A DNA stretch of 32,030 nt from a virus. The translations under genes were made by a program, and so were the position numbers. The notes below the pieces were generated by a model. The model did not search any database, was not told the origin of the DNA, and saw nothing but the letters and a program-made list of their open reading frames with translations. Each line of letters begins with the position of its first letter. Positions within the stretch are counted from its first letter, which is position 1. The stretch lies in the IMG/VR virus record IMGVR_UViG_3300045988_164504. One strand, given 5' to 3'. This document shows, piece by piece, positions 5,657-30,192 of the stretch.

Positions 5657-6005
5657 AAAATTAAGAAAGATTATAAATCATTATGGCATGGATAAACAAT
5701 TGAAATATTTTCAAAGTGAAGTATTTGAATTAAATGAGGCAATTATAAAAAGAAGAAATACAGGAGTAATAGAAAGTATTGCCATAGGAATAACTAATGC
5801 AGTAGCACCATTACTAAATATAAAAAATGTTGATTATTCAAAAGAACATATCAAAGAAGAAATTGCAGATGTTATGGTTATGTTAAAGCAATTTCAGTTA
5901 TATTATGATATTCCAACAGAAGATATAAAAGCAATCATGAAAAATAAAGTTGATAGACAACTAGAAAGGATTGAATATGAACCTAAGCATGGAAAAGAAG
6001 AATAA
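5649..6005 (+). CDS. MazG-like all-alpha nucleotide pyrophosphohydrolase
   Basis: 118 aa. The pairing LKYFQSEVFELNEAI ... KEEIADVMVMLKQF (ExxE ... EExxD) is typical of the MazG fold. Confidence 0.65.
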   Translation: MNEKLRKIINHYGMDKQLKYFQSEVFELNEAIIKRRNTGVIESIAIGITNAVAPLLNIKNVDYSKEHIKEEIADVMVMLKQFQLYYDIPTEDIKAIMKNKVDRQLERIEYEPKHGKEE

Positions 6006-20073: not shown

Positions 20074-22542
20074 ATGGCAGGTTCATTTGGTGGAACAGTA
20101 AAATTAACTGGTGAAAGTGAATATGCAAGTGCATTAAAGAATATTAATAGCAATTTAAAAGCAGTTAGTAGTGAATTAAAACTTGTTTCAACAGAATTTA
20201 CTAATAATGGTAATAAAATAGGCGATTTACGAAGCAAAAATGATGCACTTAATAAGAAACTTCAAGAAGAACAAAATGTTGTTAAAACTTGTTCTGATGC
20301 CATTAAAGATTTTACTGAACAACAATCAAAAAACAAAAATCAAATTGATAAATTAAGAAGTTCATTAGATATAGAAAAAACTACATTAGATAAAATGAAA
20401 AATAGCACAACTGCAACAAGTGAAGAAATATCCAAACAAGAAAAAATTGTTGCAGATTTATCAAAAGAATTATCTAAATCTGAAAGTGCTTATGATAGCA
20501 ATAGTAGGAAAATAAATGATTATAAAGTTAAATTGAATGATGCAAAAACTCAATGTAGTGATTTATCAAAAGAAATTCAAGATAATAATAATATATTATC
20601 AAAAACAAAAGATAATTTTAAAGATAATGCAAAGTCTGTTAAGGATTTTGCAACGGAAGAAGAAAAAGCAGGTAATAATACTCTAATATTAGGGGATTTG
20701 ATAAAAGGTAACTTAATAAGTGAGGGTATTATAGCAGGTATTAAAGGTTTAGCAGGAGCAATGAAAACAGTTGGTTCTGCTTTATTAGATATTGGGAAAT
20801 CTGCTATTGATAGTTATGCTAATTATGAGCAGTTAATAGGTGGCGTTGAAACATTATTTAAAGATAGTGCAGGTATTGTTGAGGGCTATGCTAATAATGC
20901 TTATAAAACTGCTGGTTTATCTGCAAATGATTATATGGAAACAGTAACATCATTTTCTGCAAGTCTATTACAGAGTTTAAATAATGATACTGCTAAAAGT
21001 GCAGAAGTTGCTGATATGGCAATTACGGATATGTCTGACAATGCAAATAAAATGGGTACAGATATGTCTATGATACAAAGTGCATATCAAGGATTTGCTA
21101 AGCAAAATTATACCATGTTAGATAATCTTAAATTAGGTTATGGTGGTACTAAGTCTGAGATGGAAAGATTATTAAAAGATGCACAAAAAATTAGTGGTGT
21201 TAAGTACGATATTTCCAATTTAAGTGATGTTTATAATGCAATTCATGTAATTCAAGGTGAATTGGGTATCACAGGTACGACTGCCAAAGAAGCAAGTACA
21301 ACAATACAAGGGTCAGTTGCTTCAATGAAATCTGCATGGAGCAATTTATTAACAGGGGTTGCCGATGACAATGCAGATTGGGGAACTTTGGTTAATAATT
21401 TTGTTGATAGTGTAGTAACTGCTGGTGATAATTTATTACCTAGAATAGAAATAGCAGTCGAGGGAATAGGTCTTTTAATTACTGATGGATTAGCATTATT
21501 GCTTCAAAATGTAGTTCCAATGGGAATGCAACTTATTCAGAATTTAATTACTGGTATGGCTAATCAATTACCTGATATTATACCAAGTATAAATGGTGCA
21601 ATGGGTATGATTATAAATGGAATTGTTGCGATGTTGCCACAAATTTTACAAATGGGAATTCAAATAATAGTATCCTTAGTACAAGGAATAGCACAATCAT
21701 TACCTACCTTAATTCCACAAATGGTTGATGCAGTTGTTACTATGGTAGATACATTATTAGATAATATTGATTTAATCATAGATGCAGGTATTCAATTATT
21801 AATTGGATTAGCAGATGGATTAATTGAGGCATTGCCAAAATTAATTGATAGAATTCCTGAAATAATAGATAAATTAGTTCAAGCAATTACTAATAATTTG
21901 CCAAAAATAATTGAAGCAGGTATTGAACTTACTGTTAAATTAGCATGGGGTATCGTTAAAGCAATACCACAATTAGTTTCTAAAATTCCACAAATAATTA
22001 GTTCATTAGTATCAGGTATTGCAAGTTATTATTCAAAAATGTGGAATATAGGTAAGGAATTACTTGGAAAAGTAAAAGATGGTATTACTAATGGAATATC
22101 AGGAATGTTAGATGTTGGAAAAAATTTAGTAAAAGGTTTATGGAATGGTATAAATAATGCCAAAGATTGGGTTTTAAATAAGATTAAAGGCTTTGGAAAA
22201 AGTATTGTTAATGGTATTAAAGGTATTTTTGGAATTCACAGTCCATCTACTGTATTTAGAGATGAAATTGGTGTTAATTTAGCCAAAGGTATAGGTGTAG
22301 GTTTTGAAGATGAAATGGGTAATGTAAATGATACCATTCAAAAATCTTTACCTACTGATTTAGATGTTTCACCAAATTTAAATTTAAATAGTAATACAAC
22401 AGGTAATTATGGAATTAGTGATAACTATTCTTCCTTAGTAAATGCATTACAGGATGCATTGGATGGTATGTCATTCAAAGTAGATGGTGATAAATTTGGT
22501 GAATTAGTAGTTGATAAGGTAGAAAGGGTGATTTATTCATGA
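20074..22542 (+). CDS. Tape measure protein
   Basis: 822 aa. N-terminal coiled coil. Long Gly/Ile/Leu-rich repeats (LPxIIxxI...). Position fits. Confidence 0.9.
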   Translation: MAGSFGGTVKLTGESEYASALKNINSNLKAVSSELKLVSTEFTNNGNKIGDLRSKNDALNKKLQEEQNVVKTCSDAIKDFTEQQSKNKNQIDKLRSSLDIEKTTLDKMKNSTTATSEEISKQEKIVADLSKELSKSESAYDSNSRKINDYKVKLNDAKTQCSDLSKEIQDNNNILSKTKDNFKDNAKSVKDFATEEEKAGNNTLILGDLIKGNLISEGIIAGIKGLAGAMKTVGSALLDIGKSAIDSYANYEQLIGGVETLFKDSAGIVEGYANNAYKTAGLSANDYMETVTSFSASLLQSLNNDTAKSAEVADMAITDMSDNANKMGTDMSMIQSAYQGFAKQNYTMLDNLKLGYGGTKSEMERLLKDAQKISGVKYDISNLSDVYNAIHVIQGELGITGTTAKEASTTIQGSVASMKSAWSNLLTGVADDNADWGTLVNNFVDSVVTAGDNLLPRIEIAVEGIGLLITDGLALLLQNVVPMGMQLIQNLITGMANQLPDIIPSINGAMGMIINGIVAMLPQILQMGIQIIVSLVQGIAQSLPTLIPQMVDAVVTMVDTLLDNIDLIIDAGIQLLIGLADGLIEALPKLIDRIPEIIDKLVQAITNNLPKIIEAGIELTVKLAWGIVKAIPQLVSKIPQIISSLVSGIASYYSKMWNIGKELLGKVKDGITNGISGMLDVGKNLVKGLWNGINNAKDWVLNKIKGFGKSIVNGIKGIFGIHSPSTVFRDEIGVNLAKGIGVGFEDEMGNVNDTIQKSLPTDLDVSPNLNLNSNTTGNYGISDNYSSLVNALQDALDGMSFKVDGDKFGELVVDKVERVIYS

Positions 22543-23231
22543 GTTATATAATTTGGAAAAATAGACATAGTGATGATGTAAAAGGATTATTGATAAGTGA
22601 GTTATCACCTATTTCTAAGCCTAAAATGAGAACAACAACAACTGAAATTGATGGAAAAGATGGCGATGTTGTTGAATATTTAGGATATAAAAGTTATACA
22701 AAAACAATTTCAATTGGTTTAACTAAAAATTATGATATAGATGAAATTATCAATTATTTTAACGGAAGTGGTAAGTTGATATTATCAAATGAACCTGATA
22801 AATACTATAATGCACAAATAATTGATAGTATTGATTATAATAGATTAATCAATTTTAAAAAGGCAAGTGTAAAATTTTATGTTCAACCATTTAAATATTT
22901 ATTAAATGAAGCACCATTTGTTTTAAATATTACTAATGAAACCTCATTAAAAGTATCAAATAGAGGATATGAACAATCTAAACCAATAATCACATTGTAT
23001 GGAACAGGTACAATTCAATTATTAGTAAATGGAAACCAAATTTTTTCAGTAGATATGGTTGATGATTATATAACTATTGACTCTGAACAGGAAGAAGCAT
23101 ATCATGGACTAATTTTAAAAAACAGACAAATGACAGGCGATTTTCCAAAATTAAATTCAGGTATAAACATTATTAGTTGGGTTGGTAATTTAACAAAAAT
23201 AGAAGTCAATCCTAGAAGTAGGTGGTTATAA
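22539..23231 (+). CDS. Distal tail protein (Dit)
   Basis: 230 aa. Immediately follows the tape measure gene. Confidence 0.65.
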   Translation: MSYIIWKNRHSDDVKGLLISELSPISKPKMRTTTTEIDGKDGDVVEYLGYKSYTKTISIGLTKNYDIDEIINYFNGSGKLILSNEPDKYYNAQIIDSIDYNRLINFKKASVKFYVQPFKYLLNEAPFVLNITNETSLKVSNRGYEQSKPIITLYGTGTIQLLVNGNQIFSVDMVDDYITIDSEQEEAYHGLILKNRQMTGDFPKLNSGINIISWVGNLTKIEVNPRSRWL

Positions 23232-24883
23232 TGATTAGTGTATATCCATCAACAGAAAAACACTTTGCTAATAATGGATTGAAAGTTATGCATCCGTTAA
23301 AAGCAAAAGTTTATAAAGAAGATAATGGTGAATTTTATATTGATATTAAAGATACAATTGAAAATTTAGAATATTATGCAGAGGGAATGATAGTCAGGAC
23401 TGACACACCTTGGGGTAAACAATGTTTTAGATTAACTAATCCTGAAATTGATAAAGATAAAATAATCAGTAAGGGTTATCATTTATATTTTGATACAAAA
23501 AGATATGTGATTGTAGATAGTTATGTTGTTGATAAAAATTGTAATGATGCATTAGACCATTTGAATAATGCTTGTGATATTGAAACACCTTTTACTTTCA
23601 TTTCTGATATATCAACAATTAATTCATATAGATGTGTAAGACATACATTAGAAGAAGCAATTTCAGTCGTTATTGAACGATGGGGAGGGCATCTAATAAG
23701 AGATAATTATAATGTTGAAATAAGAGAAAATATTGGCGAAGATAGAGGTGTTGTCTTATCGTATGCCAAAAATATTAAAAGCATAAAAGCAACTGAAAAT
23801 TGGGATAATGTAGTAACTAAATTATTACCTGTTGGTAAAGATGGTTTATTATTACCAACTACATGGATAGAAGAAACTGGTTTATATGATATACCTTATA
23901 CAAAAGTTGTGAGTTTTAGTCAAGATGATATTTCAGAGGATGATTATAAAACTGCTGGTGTTTTGGATGAAGATGCTTATAAAACTGCTTTATTAAACGA
24001 TTTAGAAGCCCAAGCAAAAGAATATTTAAACACTTATAAAGTTCCACAAGTAAATTATACTTTAAGTGCTAATATTCAAAATGTATCTGATATAGGCGAT
24101 ACTATTCATGTAAAGCATCCTAAATGCAAAATTGATTTAATAACAAATGTTATTGCTATTGAATACGATTGTATATCAAAAGAATATACAAAAATAGAAT
24201 TCGGTAATTTTAAAAATAAATTAAATGATTTGATTAGTGATGTTTCATCACAAATAACTGAAACAGTAAGCAAAGAAAATACAAGTAATTATAATAAATT
24301 ACAATCAAAATTAGAAGATGCAACAAATAAAATAAATGATGCCATGAATTCATCTTATGTAGTTAATGATGATGGAAACCAAATGATGATTGTAGATAGA
24401 TTGCCAAAGGAAACTGCAAAAAATGTTATTAGAATAAATAGTGCAGGAATAGGTTTTAGTCAGAATGGTATTAATGGTGTATTTAAATCTGCATGGACTA
24501 TTGATGGTACATTAAATATGCAAAATATAAATGTAATAAACTTAATTGCTGATATGATTAAAGGTGGAACATTAAAACTTGGTTCAAATTTGAATGAAGC
24601 AGGTGTTATGGAATTATATGATGAAGCCAATAGGTTAATCTCTAAGTTTGATAAGACAGGATTAACCTTTTTTAACGATGATAAATCCTATATAAGAATA
24701 AATCCAGAAGTTGGTTTTGCTGGTTATAATTCAAATAATACAAAAACATTTTGGGCTGATAAAGATGAATTCCATCAAAAAAAATCAGTTGTAGAAGAAG
24801 AAATTACGATTGCATCTAAAATGCGAATTTTACCAATAAAAACGGATACCAACAATGGTATAGGGTTTATACCTGTTGTATAG
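23231..24883 (+). CDS. Tail-associated (Tal) / minor structural protein, N-terminal endopeptidase-tail type
   Basis: About 550 aa. The N-terminus MISVYPSTEKHFANNGLKVMHPLKAKV is typical of siphovirus Tal proteins. Confidence 0.65.
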   Translation: MISVYPSTEKHFANNGLKVMHPLKAKVYKEDNGEFYIDIKDTIENLEYYAEGMIVRTDTPWGKQCFRLTNPEIDKDKIISKGYHLYFDTKRYVIVDSYVVDKNCNDALDHLNNACDIETPFTFISDISTINSYRCVRHTLEEAISVVIERWGGHLIRDNYNVEIRENIGEDRGVVLSYAKNIKSIKATENWDNVVTKLLPVGKDGLLLPTTWIEETGLYDIPYTKVVSFSQDDISEDDYKTAGVLDEDAYKTALLNDLEAQAKEYLNTYKVPQVNYTLSANIQNVSDIGDTIHVKHPKCKIDLITNVIAIEYDCISKEYTKIEFGNFKNKLNDLISDVSSQITETVSKENTSNYNKLQSKLEDATNKINDAMNSSYVVNDDGNQMMIVDRLPKETAKNVIRINSAGIGFSQNGINGVFKSAWTIDGTLNMQNINVINLIADMIKGGTLKLGSNLNEAGVMELYDEANRLISKFDKTGLTFFNDDKSYIRINPEVGFAGYNSNNTKTFWADKDEFHQKKSVVEEEITIASKMRILPIKTDTNNGIGFIPVV

Positions 24884-24895
24884 GAGGTGAATTAA

Positions 24896-26413
24896 ATGGC
24901 AACAAGTGGTTCATTTGAAACAGGAAAATATGGTGGTGTAAGAGGGTTATATTTTTCTTGGTGGGTTAATAGTCAAAGTATTAGTGGAAATTATACTGAT
25001 ATTGGTTGGAATTTTGTCGGTTCAGGAAGTGGTTCAACTTGGTATTATACTTTAAATGGTTATTTAAATATAAATGGTGGTAGAGTATGGACACAAGGTT
25101 CGAGTAAAATTCAATTGTCTAGTGGTACTGTTGTAGCAAGTGGAACTACAAGAATTTATCATAATAACGATGGTACTAAATCTTTTAGTGCTGATGGTGG
25201 TGCTACTATTTATAATTATGGAACATGGCAAACTGGAAGTGGCAGTTGGGATTTACCAACCATTCCAAGACAGGCAAATGTTACAGGTGCATCAGATTTT
25301 ACAGATGAACAAAATCCAACCATAACTTTTAACAATGCTGGTGGTTTCAGAATAAATGCAAGGTTAGAATTTGGTGGTACTAGCATATCAAGAGATAATA
25401 TTCCAAATACAGGAAGTTATACATTTTCACTAACGGATGCTGAAAGAAATTTATTAAGAAGCAAATGTACAGGTAATTCAATGACTGTTAGACAAGTAAT
25501 TGGTACTTGTATATCAGGAACAACCGAAAGTTTTTGGAGTTGGCAAGACAAAACTATGAAAATTGTCAATGCTAATCCAACATTTAGTTCATCAAACATA
25601 TCATATCAAGATACTAACAGTATTATTACTGCTATCACAGGTAATAATAAACATATTGTTAGAAATTTATCTAATTTAAAAGTAAGTATTAGCAATGCAA
25701 CTGCAAAAAAATCTGCATCAATGTCAAAGTATGAACTGACATTTAATGGTGTTACAAAAACATTAACATCAGCAGGTACTGTTGATTTTGGCACAGTAAA
25801 CTTAGGTTCAAGTTCATCGGTAAGTGTAAAAGCAATTGATAGTCGAGGAAATAGTACAACTGCATCTTTATCAATAACGATATTAGATTGGCAACTTCCA
25901 ACTGCATCAATATCAGCAAAAAGAATAAATAATTATGAAGATGAAACAAAATTGACTGTTCAAGTTTCAATATCATCAGTTAATTCAAAAAATAGTATTC
26001 AATCTTTAAGATATAGATATAAAAAAACAACAGAAAGCAATTATTCGAATTATAAACCTATTTCTAATAATGAAACAAAGGAAGTCATTATTGATAAATT
26101 ATTTGTATGGGATTTTCAAGTAGAAATTAAAGATAAATTTGGAACTAAGACTTACAATTTTCAAGTTGCAAAAGGTATGCCAATTATGATGATAGATGTT
26201 GATTTGATTTCAGTAGGTATTAATTGCTTTCCTACAAAAGAAAATTCGCTTGAAGTAAATGGGTATGATTTTAATAATCTGCATCCTATAAATTCTATTA
26301 TAATTACTACTAATAACAATAATCCATCAAGTTCTGTAACAGGTACTTGGGAGTTGTTATCAACTCAATCATTAAATAATGTAACAATTTATTATTGGAA
26401 AAGAACTGCATAA
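24896..26413 (+). CDS. Tail fibre / baseplate structural protein (DUF859-like N-terminus)
   Basis: 505 aa. Gly/Ser/Thr/Asn-rich beta-type sequence. SGSFETGKYGG ... FSWWVNSQSISGNYT. Confidence 0.5.
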   Translation: MATSGSFETGKYGGVRGLYFSWWVNSQSISGNYTDIGWNFVGSGSGSTWYYTLNGYLNINGGRVWTQGSSKIQLSSGTVVASGTTRIYHNNDGTKSFSADGGATIYNYGTWQTGSGSWDLPTIPRQANVTGASDFTDEQNPTITFNNAGGFRINARLEFGGTSISRDNIPNTGSYTFSLTDAERNLLRSKCTGNSMTVRQVIGTCISGTTESFWSWQDKTMKIVNANPTFSSSNISYQDTNSIITAITGNNKHIVRNLSNLKVSISNATAKKSASMSKYELTFNGVTKTLTSAGTVDFGTVNLGSSSSVSVKAIDSRGNSTTASLSITILDWQLPTASISAKRINNYEDETKLTVQVSISSVNSKNSIQSLRYRYKKTTESNYSNYKPISNNETKEVIIDKLFVWDFQVEIKDKFGTKTYNFQVAKGMPIMMIDVDLISVGINCFPTKENSLEVNGYDFNNLHPINSIIITTNNNNPSSSVTGTWELLSTQSLNNVTIYYWKRTA

Positions 26414-26427
26414 AGGAGGAATGAGAT

Positions 26428-28170
26428 ATGAAAAATAAAAAATTTGATATTTTAGTTAATTTTGAAAAAAGTGATAGTATAACATCTGATGAAATAAAAA
26501 TTGTAAAAGGTGATTATAATTCAATTGAATTTAATTTTCAATTAAGTAAAACAGATTTTTCAAAAGCAATGTTTTATATGGTGAAGCCTAGTGGCTTACA
26601 TTTTGTAAGTGAGATAAAAAATAATAAAGTAACATTTGAAAAAAATATGGCTTTTAATGAAGTAGGTAAGTATTTATTTAGTGTTGCATTATATGGTAGT
26701 GATAGTAGATTGACAAATACTGCAAAAGGAAATATATCGGTTGTAGATGGTCAATTAGATATGGATGATGAAGTTGTTCAAGAAGAAAATTATCAAATAT
26801 TAGATAGTTTAATAACAGAGGTTATATCTTTAAAAGAAGAAATTGAAACTACACTTGCAACAATGGATGGTGTATTTAAAGATGTGTCGTATAATGCTAC
26901 AAATGGTGTATTGACCTTTACAAAAAAAGACAATTCTACTGTAAAAATCGATTTACCACTAGAATTGTTAATAAAAAGTGGTCATTATGATAGTAGTACC
27001 GAAAATTTAGTATTGGTATTAGCGAATAATGACACAATAAAAATACCTGTTGCAGAACTGGTTAATGAATATTATGCCGATGGTACAACATTAGAGTTAA
27101 AAACCGTTAATGGAAAACTTACTTTTAATGTAAAAAATGGTGTTTATCAGGAAAAAGTAAGTGGCAAGGGATTAAGTACGAATGATTTTACTGATGATTA
27201 TAAAAATAAGGTTAATAGTAATACTTCTAACAGGCATACACATACAAATAAGTCTGTTTTAGATGGTACAACTGCGAGTTTTACAACTGCCGATAAAAGT
27301 AATTTAGATAGCAATACTACTAATAGACACTCACATAGCAATAAATCTATTTTAGATGGCATTACTGCTTCATTTACTACTGCATATAAGAATATATTAG
27401 ATAATATTAAAACAATCGCCACAGGTGGTAAATTTGAGGATTTAACCAATAAATCTGTTGCTGGTTATCATAATTCTATTTTTAGAGGTAAAAATGTAAC
27501 GAGTTATTTAACTGATGGTTCATTATTTACTAGAATTTCAAATGGTAGTTTTGAAGATTTATTTGTAGGTGATTATATCGTAAAAAACAATATCACTTGG
27601 CGAATTGCAGGTTTTGATGTATACTTACATAAGGGGGACACCGAATTAACGAAGCATCATGCAATAATTGTTCCTGATAAGCACTTGACAACTGCACAGA
27701 TGAATTCTAGTAATACAACTGTTGGTGGTTATGTTGCTAGTTCGATGTATACAAATACATTACCTAGCATATTAGATACTTATATAACTCCTGTATTTGG
27801 TAGTCATGTAATAGAAATTAGAAATTTACTTACAAAAGGTATCAATGCAACAGGATATAATAGATATGGAATAAATAGTGGCTGTTCTAATGACTGGGCA
27901 TGGTATAGTAGAAAAGTTGATTTAATGAATGAAGTTCAAGTCTTTGGTTCTATTGTTTGGTCATCTAGTGGATATGAAACTGGTAGTGATAATTGTCAAT
28001 TACCATTATTTAGATTAGCACCTGAATTTATTACAAATAGGTCTTATTGGTATTGGTTAAGAAATATTACAAATGCTTCCTGTTTCGCTCTTGTCGGCAC
28101 CAATGGTAGTAGCGCCGACACCAATGCTGCTGCTACTGGTGGTGTTCGCCCCTGCTTTTATATCGACTAA
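26428..28170 (+). CDS. Receptor-binding tail fibre; DGR target protein with C-terminal variable region
   Basis: 580 aa. Tandem 31-aa NRHxHxNKSxLDGxTASFTTA repeats. C-terminus ...WYWLRNITNASCFALVGTNGSSADTNAAATGGVRPCFYID contains VR. Confidence 0.85.
   Translation: MKNKKFDILVNFEKSDSITSDEIKIVKGDYNSIEFNFQLSKTDFSKAMFYMVKPSGLHFVSEIKNNKVTFEKNMAFNEVGKYLFSVALYGSDSRLTNTAKGNISVVDGQLDMDDEVVQEENYQILDSLITEVISLKEEIETTLATMDGVFKDVSYNATNGVLTFTKKDNSTVKIDLPLELLIKSGHYDSSTENLVLVLANNDTIKIPVAELVNEYYADGTTLELKTVNGKLTFNVKNGVYQEKVSGKGLSTNDFTDDYKNKVNSNTSNRHTHTNKSVLDGTTASFTTADKSNLDSNTTNRHSHSNKSILDGITASFTTAYKNILDNIKTIATGGKFEDLTNKSVAGYHNSIFRGKNVTSYLTDGSLFTRISNGSFEDLFVGDYIVKNNITWRIAGFDVYLHKGDTELTKHHAIIVPDKHLTTAQMNSSNTTVGGYVASSMYTNTLPSILDTYITPVFGSHVIEIRNLLTKGINATGYNRYGINSGCSNDWAWYSRKVDLMNEVQVFGSIVWSSSGYETGSDNCQLPLFRLAPEFITNRSYWYWLRNITNASCFALVGTNGSSADTNAAATGGVRPCFYID
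28075..28160 (+). repeat. DGR variable region (VR)
   Basis: 86 bp. Gap-free alignment to 28792..28877 with 12 mismatches, 11 of them at TR adenines. Confidence 0.9.
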
Positions 28171-28180
28171 TCTTTAATCA

Positions 28181-28197
28181 CACCCCCTTGTGGGGTG
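28181..28197 (+). promoter_or_regulatory. GC-rich hairpin just 3' of VR (CACCCC-CTTGT-GGGGTG)
   Basis: 6-bp almost all-GC stem 21 nt after the VR end. Unique GC island in AT-rich DNA. Confidence 0.5.
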
Positions 28198-28226
28198 GGT
28201 TAAAGATGTCGAGGGAGGAATTGATA

Positions 28227-28775
28227 ATGAGTGTATTGAAAAGAAAAAGAAACATATCAAAAATGGAATTTTATCATAATGCTATAAAATTAAGGCTTAT
28301 GATAACCGAATTTCTTTTAAAAGATTTTGGAATAAAATCGAGAAGAAGAAATTTAGATTTTGCAAAAGATGTATATGATATGACTGATACTGATGTTTCT
28401 GAAATTGAAGAAATATTGTCAGCATACGATATAAAAAATAGTTTCATTGACAATTTTCCAAGTTGGCTAATAGATAAAGAAAGAGATTACTTCATGGATT
28501 TATTGAGGGAATTAATGAAAAATATTTGTTCAGCAAATACAATTCATATAACCAATAAAGAAGAATACTATATGCGAAGAAACTATCAAACACAAGCGAT
28601 TTGTAATTGCGAAAATCTTCTTCAAGAGATGCAATATATAATTTGTGTATGCCATCCGAATGTGGAAAAATACATGGTGTATGTTGATATCATTGAAAAG
28701 GAAATTGTGTTATTAAAAGGTTGGCGAAAATCAGATAATAAAATATTTAAAGAATTAGATAAAGAAAAAGGGTAA
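28227..28775 (+). CDS. avd: DGR accessory variability determinant (Avd)-like helical protein
   Basis: Lies between VR and TR. Predicted helical and basic. GGGAGG is 8 nt before ATG 28227 (the track starts at TTG 28188). About 182 aa, longer than classical Avd. Confidence 0.6.
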   Translation: MSVLKRKRNISKMEFYHNAIKLRLMITEFLLKDFGIKSRRRNLDFAKDVYDMTDTDVSEIEEILSAYDIKNSFIDNFPSWLIDKERDYFMDLLRELMKNICSANTIHITNKEEYYMRRNYQTQAICNCENLLQEMQYIICVCHPNVEKYMVYVDIIEKEIVLLKGWRKSDNKIFKELDKEKG

Positions 28776-28791
28776 AGTTTGTATTTACTGG

Positions 28792-28877
28792 GCTTCCTGT
28801 TTCGCTAATGTCAACAACAATGGTAATAGCAACAACAACAATGCTTCTGCTACTGGTGGTGTTCGCCCCTGATTTTA
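28792..28877 (+). repeat. DGR template repeat (TR), non-coding
   Basis: In the VR frame it reads AAT GTC AAC AAC AAT GGT AAT AGC AAC AAC AAC AAT. It holds 22 adenines and nine AAY codons, and lies 121 nt upstream of the RT gene. Confidence 0.9.
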
Positions 28878-28997
28878 ACTCGCACAATGATTAGGTTAAG
28901 TACCGTTGCGATAATTAAAAGGAAACTTTATCCTGTCCGAAAGGCAAATGGATATTTTGATACTCTTTGATAAGTCAATTAGAGTTAGGAACAAAAT

Positions 28998-30137
28998 ATG
29001 ATAAATAAGATAAGTAATGCCAATGTTTTAATGAATAGTTTTTACGAAGCCAAAAAAGGTTGTAGTTGGAAAAATAGTGTTCAACAATATGAAGCCAATT
29101 TTTTGAAAAATATTAGACACACACAGTTAGAATTAAGAGAAAAAACATATAGACAACAAGATTTTTATTGCTTTTATCTTAAAGAAAGAGGAAAAGATAG
29201 ATATGTTCGCTCCATAAGTTTCTATGATAGAGTTGTACAAAGGGCTTTGTGCGATTTAGTTAATCCCATAGTTGAACCATATTTAATACATGATAATGGT
29301 GCAAGTGTGAAGAAAAAAGGAATTGATTTTGCTAGAAGAAGAATAGAAAATCATTTGCATAAATATTATAGAAAATATGGGAATAAAGGATATGCACTCG
29401 TTATTGATTTCAGTAAGTTTTATGATAATATACTTCATAAACCTTTAATGGATATGTACAGAGAGATTATTGATGATAAAGATATTATTAATTTAATAAA
29501 TCATTTAGTTGATAGTTTCTCTGTTGATATATCCAATTATAATATTACGGAAAATGAATTATTTGACTCACTTGCTTATGCTAAGGCAGAAACTGAAAAA
29601 ACAGGTGAAAAAATGATGCATAAATCATTAGGTATAGGAAGTCAAATATCTCAAATATCAGGAATTTATTATCCAAGTAAGATGGATAATTATTGTAAAA
29701 TTGTTAAGGGTATTAAATTCTATGGAAGATATATGGATGATACCTATATAATTGGAAATAGTAAAGAAGAATTAAAATCTTTATTGGATGATATTGATAA
29801 AATCTGTAAAAAACAAGGAATTTTTATAAATCATAAGAAAACACAATTATTTAGGTTAGATAAGGGTTTTACCTTTTTAAAAATAAAATATAGATTAACA
29901 GATACTGGGCATTTAGTAAGAATACCTGTGAAAAAGAATTTTATCAGAGAAAGAAGAAAACTAAAAAGTTTTAAAAATCTATTAGATAAAGGGTTGATTG
30001 ATTTTCATGATATTGAGGAACAATATAAATCTTGGAAAGGTAATATTCAAAAATATGATTGTTATAAAAGTCTAAAAAATTTAGACAAAGTATTCAATGA
30101 TTTGTTTTTAAATAATAATTCACAAAATTCACATTAA
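28998..30137 (+). CDS. DGR reverse transcriptase
   Basis: 379 aa. FYDRVVQRAL, IDFSKFYDNILH, LGIGSQISQISG (DGR-type SQ motif), GRYMDDTYIIG (YxDD). Confidence 0.9.
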   Translation: MINKISNANVLMNSFYEAKKGCSWKNSVQQYEANFLKNIRHTQLELREKTYRQQDFYCFYLKERGKDRYVRSISFYDRVVQRALCDLVNPIVEPYLIHDNGASVKKKGIDFARRRIENHLHKYYRKYGNKGYALVIDFSKFYDNILHKPLMDMYREIIDDKDIINLINHLVDSFSVDISNYNITENELFDSLAYAKAETEKTGEKMMHKSLGIGSQISQISGIYYPSKMDNYCKIVKGIKFYGRYMDDTYIIGNSKEELKSLLDDIDKICKKQGIFINHKKTQLFRLDKGFTFLKIKYRLTDTGHLVRIPVKKNFIRERRKLKSFKNLLDKGLIDFHDIEEQYKSWKGNIQKYDCYKSLKNLDKVFNDLFLNNNSQNSH

Positions 30138-30192
30138 ATTGATGATATAATGTATATAGAGAATAAGGCAACAAAAAATAGTTGTCTTTTTT
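30119..30192 (+). promoter_or_regulatory. Late element C: TTCACA-N3-TTCACA-N9-TGATATAATGTAT plus terminator, in front of the lysis cassette
   Basis: TTCACA at 30119 and 30128, overlapping the RT stop at 30135..30137. TATAAT at 30146..30151. Hairpin AGGCAAC-N8-GTTGTCT at 30166..30187, then T6. Confidence 0.6.

Follow-up and report, generated by a model that had tools for sequence, protein, structure and literature searches.

Here we describe a stretch of viral DNA of 32,030 nt (IMG/VR virus record IMGVR_UViG_3300045988_164504; hereafter, the window), which corresponds to a whole temperate siphovirus-type prophage with a GC content of 27.7% and which, at positions 26428-30137, with very little doubt carries a complete and currently active diversity-generating retroelement (DGR). 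The host is a gut-dwelling Bacillota of low GC content. A sequence-only reading of this region had already proposed such an element, composed of a variable repeat (VR) within a fibre gene, an Avd-like open reading frame (ORF), a template repeat (TR) and a reverse transcriptase (RT), and we find all four, in that order and on the plus strand. What settles its activity is the comparison of natural populations: among near-identical prophages TR is invariant and VR differs, which shows that VR is rewritten from TR in one direction only and specifically at adenines, and that this rewriting is recent and frequent. The cassette is a well-documented example of a known system, as DGRs with DUF6273 targets on gut Bacillota prophages have already been published, and nothing in the locus contradicts the DGR paradigm.

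VR is rewritten from an invariant TR

The only long direct repeat that a repeat finder returned for the region is the pair on which the original proposal was built: VR (28075-28160), which makes up the last ~30 codons of the target gene, aligns over 86 nt without gaps and at a constant offset of 717 with an intergenic copy, TR (28792-28877). A base-by-base comparison also reproduced the 12 reported mismatches, 11 of which fall on TR adenines (five A>G, five A>C and one A>T), and this adenine bias has a probability of P=3e-7 (hypergeometric test for 11 or more of the 12 mismatches falling on A, given 22 adenines among the 86 nt of TR). Ten of the 12 mismatches lie in AAY codons, of which TR has nine in the VR frame, at the positions of fibre residues 555, 557, 558, 559, 561 and 563-566, within a mutable core spanning codons 555-566 (28090-28125). 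Each of these nine codons gives access to 15 amino acids and no stop, for a repertoire of 15^9 = 3.8e10 proteins. No further TR-like copy was found within the window.

At its 3' end, VR carries a GC-rich block that resembles an initiation of mutagenic homing (IMH) element (28132-28154), whose 23 nt are identical to positions 28849-28871 of TR and, at 65% GC against 27.7% for the window, stand out as had been noted. The block is followed by a fixed boundary base, C28155, and its counterpart is the IMH*-like 3' end of TR (28849-28877). It is at this boundary that the earlier account has to be amended: all 11 mismatches at adenines exist, but that between C28155 in VR and A28872 in TR is constant in every relative examined, in both lineages considered below, and is thus a fixed boundary difference of the IMH/IMH* type rather than a trace of mutagenesis. 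The differences between VR and TR downstream of the boundary are likewise constant across relatives, and the combination of an identical GC-rich 3' block with fixed VR/TR differences, which serves as a criterion for DGRs, is found here. The sole mismatch that does not involve an adenine, at 28129 (G in VR, T in TR; Ser568Ala), is private to the window, residue 568 being a serine, as in TR, in 12/12 other full-length fibres compared, and reflects either a point mutation or a rare RT error at a base other than A. Two of the 12 mismatches in the window (28155 and 28129) are, in sum, not due to mutagenesis.

For the population test, we compared the window with four near-identical prophages (L011-L014), which share the same 580-aa fibre and exactly the same RT protein, itself recorded in 1171 blocks of the collection, and with ten loci of a sister lineage (L001-L010). 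The four prophages differ from the window by 1-30 nt over the 1647 nt of the fibre gene upstream of VR and by 0-9 nt over the 1977 nt between the end of VR and the end of the RT gene. Their TR is identical to that of the window and their VR is different in each of them, at A columns, with a G>A change in L012 as the single exception. The sister lineage repeats the pattern, with a TR that is identical in 10/10 loci and, in the nine loci without an indel in VR (the tenth was left out of the column comparison), a VR where 19 of the 21 A columns vary compared to 1 of the 58 non-A columns, corresponding to 80 substitutions at A and a single one elsewhere. The directionality by which DGRs are recognised, with TR invariant and VR variable among near-identical genomes, is thus directly visible, and the expectation of the sequence-only reading that variation be limited to the TR-adenine columns of VR, with TR itself invariant, is borne out in these related prophages. 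TR is the invariant master copy, and VR is repeatedly overwritten by copies of it in which the adenines have been randomised.

The same picture emerges at the protein level. The cluster formed by the fibre at 90% identity contains 887 distinct sequences, and from the 40 members that we read, 12 full-length ones were compared with the window fibre; across these 13 proteins, 5-8 different residues are seen at each of the nine AAY codons and at no other position. The sister lineage further shows that the DGR cassette is modular and is shared between prophages with unrelated tail genes. Its accessory gene, spacer and RT are 90%, 88% and 78% identical to those of the window, whereas hardly any relationship is left between the tail genes of the two (24-32% over short stretches), and its target, with 271 aa, is homologous to fibre residues 337-579 only (43%). 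L014, from the near-identical set, and L003 and L007, from the sister lineage, have flanking host genes in common (Abi_2 and HtrA-like).

A few sequences depart from simple substitution. The VR of L009 (~5775-5860) has a 3-nt deletion, leading to a 270-aa target, and within the fibre cluster P0132 has a two-residue insertion in VR and P0129 reads as a frameshifted VR. These indels are not explained by standard adenine mutagenesis. Two further cluster members, P0123 and P0124 (189 and 170 aa), end in accessory protein sequence and probably arose as artefacts of clustering or gene calling, for instance through a call fused across VR and the accessory gene.

The target is a distal tail protein with a DUF6273-type domain

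The target of the DGR is a 580-aa distal tail (fibre-like) protein encoded at 26428-28170, the last gene of the tail module, whose extent, like that of the 379-aa RT (28998-30137), is as first called. Its C-terminal part (residues ~337-580, nt ~27436-28167) is a DUF6273-type domain. The Pfam DUF6273 model matches the last 43 residues (538-580) with 21.5 bits, just under its cut-off of 23.5, which relatives pass, and the AlphaFold2 (AF2) model of residues 335-580 has a pLDDT of 93.9. In a Foldseek search of the PDB, the only significant match of this domain was 9qa6, an IgA peptidase from T. ramosa (E=3.7e-5), whose N-terminal domain is a DUF6273 (PMC12402451), trailed by weak matches to C-type lectins. 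DUF6273 is a lectin-like DGR target that carries VR at its C-terminus (PMC10743442, PMC11792537). As to the lectin-type C-terminal fold that had been predicted for the fibre, the domain is of the DUF6273 type, a lectin-like and known DGR target, and likeness to canonical C-type lectins is weak by Foldseek.

Positions 27186-27371 hold a 93-nt tandem direct repeat with 71% identity between its copies, which encodes two units of ~31 aa, each with a His-x-His motif (SNRHTHTNKSVLDG / TNRHSHSNKSILDG), and for which no Pfam or PHROG model gave a match. We take it to resemble the metal-binding HxH repeats of phage fibres.

The likely outcome of mutagenesis is a diversified ligand or receptor specificity of this distal tail protein. 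It is nevertheless conceivable, if somewhat improbable, that the DGR is real and its target is not a host-receptor-binding fibre; the protein would then bind mucus or host glycans, or be a secreted lysogenic-conversion factor, in the manner of DUF6273 'tentaclin' or Hoc-like proteins. Such a role would agree with the description of DUF6273 targets in Faecalibacterium phages as Hoc-like or secreted, and with the lack of any PHROGs match for the 580-aa protein. The gene, however, closes the tail module, directly after those of the Tal-type and DUF859 proteins, the N-terminal 330 residues of its product include the fibre-like HxH repeats, and the homologous domain ends the tail module in the sister lineage too.

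The reverse transcriptase and the accessory protein

The RT gene starts 121 nt past the end of TR, and its product has the YMDD motif at residues 245-248, both as reported before. The SQ motif typical of DGR enzymes is also present, as IGSQISQ (residues 213-219, following [IVL]GxxxSQ), and not in the form LGxxxSQ under which it had been listed, a pattern that LGIGSQ does not fit. The protein matches Pfam RVT_1 with E=6.5e-19 and PHROG 1423 with E=5.5e-73. Its best solved relative is 8ub7 (E=3e-14, 56 bits), which a search with Brt itself established to be the RT of the BPP-1 DGR (E=4.5e-230), compared to at most 32 bits for group II intron RTs. BLASTP aligns the two enzymes end to end (E=2e-20, 24% identity), with R68, D137, 213-219 and 245-248 of the window RT facing R74, D138, I181-Q187 and Y213-D216 of Brt. 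Judged by IGSQISQ, YMDD and its proximity to Brt among solved structures, the RT appears to be of the DGR type, as proposed. Relative to Brt, it has an insertion of ~45 residues at ~160-207 (29475-29620), between the region of D137 and IGSQISQ.

The accessory gene encodes 182 aa at 28227-28775 (stop codon at 28773-28775); its start is most likely the ATG at 28227, behind GGAGGA, and not the TTG at 28188, and gene callers picked the same ATG in related contigs. The helical ORF that had been placed in the Avd position proved to be Avd-like by fold, by place and by phage protein family, but lies outside the curated Avd sequence families. PHROG 3206 ('Avd protein of DGR') matches 30 of 31 family members, with a best E-value of 1.6e-11 and 9.6e-5 for the window protein itself, whereas neither the window protein nor the 31 family members gave a Pfam or NCBIfam match (the Pfam scan returned noise only), and a profile search of PDB sequences with the accessory alignment returned nothing. 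The AF2 model (pLDDT 80.6) is a divergent Avd-like four-helix bundle, with helices at 9-31, 79-105, 111-142 and 146-181 and an insertion of ~45 residues (~32-78) between the first two. Its top PDB matches in Foldseek are 2gsc (probability 0.99) and 2rld (probability 0.92), both of which we take to belong to the Avd/23S rRNA-IVS four-helix-bundle superfamily, and in BFVD two 'Avd-like protein' entries match with probability 1.00 and a TM of 0.66-0.70; the E-values for this model are weak (0.02-0.8). With that family the window protein shares the four-helix bundle, over ~110 core residues, and the position in the cassette, and differs from it in the insertion and in the lack of a Pfam or NCBIfam match. 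In 45-55 related loci, down to 33% accessory identity, homologues are placed between an adenine-biased VR and a TR. Another contig (JAFTFC010000001.1) has two accessory copies ~40 kb apart (L052 and L053), near which a crude scan found no adenine-biased VR/TR pair, as was the case for several other accessory loci; these may have remote targets, be decayed cassettes or reflect misses of the scan.

With all parts of the cassette in view, three explanations that dispense with an active DGR can be weighed. A decayed, inactive relic, in which the VR/TR differences are old, is very unlikely. The one non-adenine difference in the window (28129) would fit it, but all ORFs are intact, the catalytic residues of the RT are present, the fibre cluster is as diverse as its 887 distinct sequences indicate, and prophages whose flanks differ by 0-2 nt per 1.6-2 kb carry wholly different VRs at A positions. 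We give even less credence to a VR made hypervariable by recombination or diversifying selection, without reverse transcription and with TR as an incidental partial duplication. The tips of phage tail fibres are commonly hypervariable through recombination, but here the changes are confined to TR-A columns, 80 to 1, and affect only the first and second positions of AAY codons, TR is perfectly conserved, and the order VR-accessory-TR-RT recurs together with the adenine bias in the 45-55 loci mentioned. Hardly more credible is an RT of another class (group II intron, retron, Abi or DRT defence) that merely lies next to a repeat: its top NCBIfam match is indeed a group II intron RT model (E=6e-21), and weak matches to Drt3a, Drt5 and retrons (NCBIfam) and several to UG/DRT types (PADLOC) were obtained as well, but these fall far below the curated cut-offs (75 bits against 300 for the group II model), Brt gives the same PADLOC pattern and more strongly, so that these matches do not discriminate and we discarded the labels, Brt outscores the group II RTs by 56 to 32 bits, IGSQISQ is present, and no intron RNA, msr/msd or any other Rfam family was found in the window by an Rfam scan.

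A structured spacer RNA and a hairpin downstream of VR

Two cis elements were absent from the sequence-only reading, a structured RNA in the spacer between TR and the RT gene and a DNA hairpin downstream of VR. The former was revealed by comparative analysis only, as the single-sequence fold of TR and spacer is uninformative (z=+0.28). The comparative set consisted of the TR end and spacer from 26 non-redundant loci, and its consensus fold (RNAalifold) has compensatory changes in 14 of 20 pairs. By pair counts on the RNAalifold structure, the local helices are paired in 93-94% of cells compared to 43-56% in slid controls, and their covariation score of 0.44-0.56 contrasts with at most 0.14 in controls and is reached by 0 of 500 shuffles. 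The resulting covariance model scores 86.7 bits in the window.

All elements of this RNA lie on the plus strand and fall into three modules and a long-range duplex. The duplex brackets TR: its upstream strand (GGGUAAAGUUU, 28770-28780), which overlaps the stop codon of the accessory gene, pairs with its downstream strand (AAACUUUAUCC, 28923-28933). In almost all lineages, a complementarity search matched an 11-nt segment upstream of TR with a complementary stretch of the spacer, the sequences differing between lineages, and in a structure-blind MAFFT alignment the helix of 11 bp is 99.0% paired over the 26 sequences, with compensatory changes in 8 of its 11 pairs. Module 1 (28872-28922) is a hairpin that starts at the TR boundary, with an outer helix (U28873-U28876 with A28917-A28920), an inner helix (28880-28884 with 28907-28911), a conserved apical motif UAGG-N6-ACC (28892-28904) and an invariant GG at its end (28921-28922). 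Module 2 (28923-28949) comprises the downstream strand of the duplex, a mini-hairpin of 2 bp with a GAAA loop, CC-GAAA-GG (CCGAAAGG, 28937-28944), and then an unpaired CAAAU. Module 3 (28962-28985), directly before the ribosome-binding site of the RT gene, is a two-tier hairpin with ACUCU/AGAGU around UUGA-UAAG-UCAA, whose outer 5-bp stem is kept with varied sequence in 36 of the 38 loci where its core was found and is 3-4 bp long in the other two (counted with a script of our own, without a formal statistic). A likeness by eye between UAGG-N6-GCC and UAGGUGGUCAGCC of BPP-1 is anecdotal only, the covariance model having given no BPP-1 match. In L036-L045 (Lachnospiraceae-type), the spacer has an extra GC-rich insertion of ~35 nt (e.g., GAAGCCCATCTTCTAGTAGAGGGAGGATGGGGGAGC), ~90-125 nt past the TR end and between modules 2 and 3, which looks like an additional hairpin and which the window lacks.

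The DNA element is an inverted repeat able to form a hairpin or cruciform just 3' of VR (28164-28211, with the core CACCCC-CTTGT-GGGGTG at 28181-28197), which overlaps the fibre stop codon. Its DNA fold has a free energy of -17.1 kcal/mol (z=-5.6), a stability reached by 0 of 200 shuffles, and in 29 of 29 divergent loci a GC-rich hairpin with a stem of 5-12 bp and a different sequence lies 2-14 nt past the stop codon. The counts over the 29 loci come from our own per-sequence script; RNAalifold on the alignment downstream of VR gave 3 pairs only, as the MAFFT register is shifted in the C-runs, and was set aside in its favour. Loops are mostly CTTGT, TTTAT or TATAT, with GAAA in L063 only. A hairpin or cruciform after VR is required for homing in BPP-1 (Guo et al., PMC3240598), and in DGRs it is sought as a stem of 7-10 bp at 4-34 bp from VR; we counted the window hairpin as one of this kind, and it corresponds to the BPP-1 homing element.

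Proposed mechanism and relation to the BPP-1 system

By analogy with BPP-1, and with covariation in support, we infer the following steps of RNA folding, priming and homing. A transcript of ~28770-28992 would fold such that the 11-bp duplex between 28770-80 and 28923-33 brackets TR, and the RT and the Avd-like protein would bind the spacer RNA. cDNA synthesis would then be primed from within the spacer, near A28920, which is paired to U28873, with A28920/G28921 as the putative positional analogue of A56/G57 in the BPP-1 spacer (Sp), so that the first template bases would be A28872 and G28871. The RT would copy TR in the 3' to 5' direction, misincorporating opposite A, and would halt ahead of the bracketing duplex, 11 nt past the 5' boundary of TR. 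The cDNA would finally replace VR, a step for which the identical GC-rich block at the 3' end and the hairpin or cruciform downstream of VR presumably serve as guides.

The likeness to the BPP-1 DGR (mtd-avd-TR-brt) on which this model draws extends over several levels. The gene order of target, accessory, TR and RT is the same, mutagenesis is specific for adenines at AAY codons in the C-terminus of the target, the RTs are homologous (E=2e-20) and share their catalytic and IGxxxSQ residues, and both systems have, at the 3' end of VR, a GC-rich IMH-like block with fixed differences in TR, as well as a hairpin just after VR. On the RNA side, cryo-electron microscopy (cryo-EM) of BPP-1 has described a template:primer duplex that ends at Sp A56, followed by G57, an avd:Sp duplex termed 'cPRT Stop', a tetraloop stem of 2 bp and the adenosines A80/A81, and duplexes like 'cPRT Stop' have been predicted in 207 other DGRs (bioRxiv 10.1101/2023.10.23.563531). 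The order seen in the window, from the helix at the TR boundary through GG, the duplex strand and the 2-bp tetraloop hairpin to the adenosines, mirrors that description, and the candidate counterparts of the duplex, the mini-hairpin and the adenosines are the 11-bp helix, CCGAAAGG and CAAAU.

The two systems also differ in many respects. The window RT is only 24% identical to Brt and has its ~45-residue insertion, the accessory protein has 182 aa compared to 128 aa in the BPP-1 protein (bAvd), with no detectable sequence similarity, and TR has 86 nt compared to 134 nt. The target is of the DUF6273 type and not Mtd, and neither Mtd nor TvpA is among the 50 best PDB matches listed. The spacer RNA is undetected by covariance model in either direction, and the loop of the target hairpin is CTTGT where that of BPP-1 is GAAA. 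Since no homology was detected between either the spacers or the accessory sequences, the transfer of the mechanism from BPP-1 rests on architecture.

Several points weigh against parts of this interpretation. Phylogeny is not fully accounted for in the covariation and shuffle controls, and the sequences on which the local helices were scored are also those from which they were derived. In the BPP-1 cassette, the spacer covariance model yields no match to the BPP-1 spacer, and hhalign of the accessory profile finds no similarity to BPP-1 Avd (Bbp7; probability 0.1%). The priming site is assigned purely by positional analogy. The GRNA tetraloop, which is critical in BPP-1 and forms the consensus of phage DGRs (Guo et al. 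2011, PMC3240598), is lacking, as the loop in the window is CTTGT and those of the family are mostly of 5 nt and T-rich. Finally, receptor binding by the 580-aa protein is deduced solely from synteny and gene position.

Place among known DGRs

DGRs with DUF6273 targets have been described in several gut prophages, among them the Faecalibacterium phages Lelie, CP11, Roos and Pioen, the 'tentaclin' phages nd4 and nd12 and the Mushuviridae (PMC11792537, PMC10743442, bioRxiv 10.64898/2026.05.08.723808). In these, DUF6273, a C-type-lectin-like domain, carries VR at its C-terminus, as does the DUF6273-type domain of the window. The window lineage is set apart by its low GC content (27.7%), by being an integrase-type siphovirus with a host labelled as Bacilli among metagenome-assembled genomes (MAGs), and by the fusion of the domain to a fibre-like N-terminal region of 336 residues. 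We considered the preprint on 'cosmopolitan Mushuviridae' as a description of the window phage and rejected it, as those are Mu-like Faecalibacterium phages.

The known working of DGRs is unchanged by the present findings, and their value lies elsewhere. As a natural case of an active DGR, the locus is very clean: near-identical prophages, found in many human gut samples, differ at nine codons and essentially nowhere else. The covariation provides independent evidence that the TR-bracketing duplex, the mini-hairpin and the adenosines are a conserved part of the DGR RNA. As these data stem from a lineage far removed from Bordetella, they support the view that the published model based on cryo-EM applies generally. 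We consider three aspects to be mildly new: an Avd-like family that bears an insertion and that no Pfam or NCBIfam model picks up, covariation in support of the TR-bracketing duplex in a lineage so distant from Bordetella, and target hairpins whose loops are not GRNA. As the accessory family escapes those models, DGR finders that use them would call this cassette 'Avd-less'.

It is tempting, if still rather speculative, to see in the ~180-aa Avd-like protein with its insertion, together with a spacer RNA of its own and hairpins that are not GRNA, the signature of a distinct subclass of DGR ribonucleoproteins. On the RNA side, such a subclass would be marked by the apical UAGG-N6-GCC, the TR-bracketing duplex and the tetraloop-capped two-tier hairpin. 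If it is real, it would be widespread in gut Bacillota prophages, and also present on contigs labelled as other phyla, including the candidate phyla radiation (CPR), and the details of RNA recognition and priming would differ from the Bordetella paradigm.

Prophage context and host

Upstream of the target gene, the tail module encodes the tape measure protein (TMP, 20074-22542), Dit (22539-23231, assigned by position alone), a Prophage_tail/Tal-type tail-tip protein (23222-24883) and, directly before the 580-aa target, a DUF859 tail protein (24896-26413). Downstream of the target lie the rest of the DGR cassette, holin-like genes and an endolysin, in this order. An integrase is encoded on the minus strand at 205-1248. 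Among the INPHARED phages, megablast with 8 kb of the window returned nothing close at the DNA level, and a promoter scan of the window stayed at chance level (16 sites compared to 16.8 expected).

The MAG labels of the near-identical prophages (L015-L023 among the loci concerned) conflict, naming Bacilli, Tenericutes, Clostridium and Muribaculaceae, and because of this disagreement we describe the host only as a low-GC Bacillota, probably from the Bacilli. The accessory/DGR loci L056, L058 and L060 sit on contigs that bear CPR labels (Candidatus Saccharibacteria or Nanosyncoccus), and labels as discordant as these point to mis-binning or unreliable labelling. On its downstream side, the cassette is closed by a terminator-like hairpin with a T-run on the plus strand (30165-30188), 28 nt past the RT stop codon and before the holin-like genes, which was identified as a consensus match only and is one of 3 terminator-like sites, compared to 0.7 expected from shuffles.

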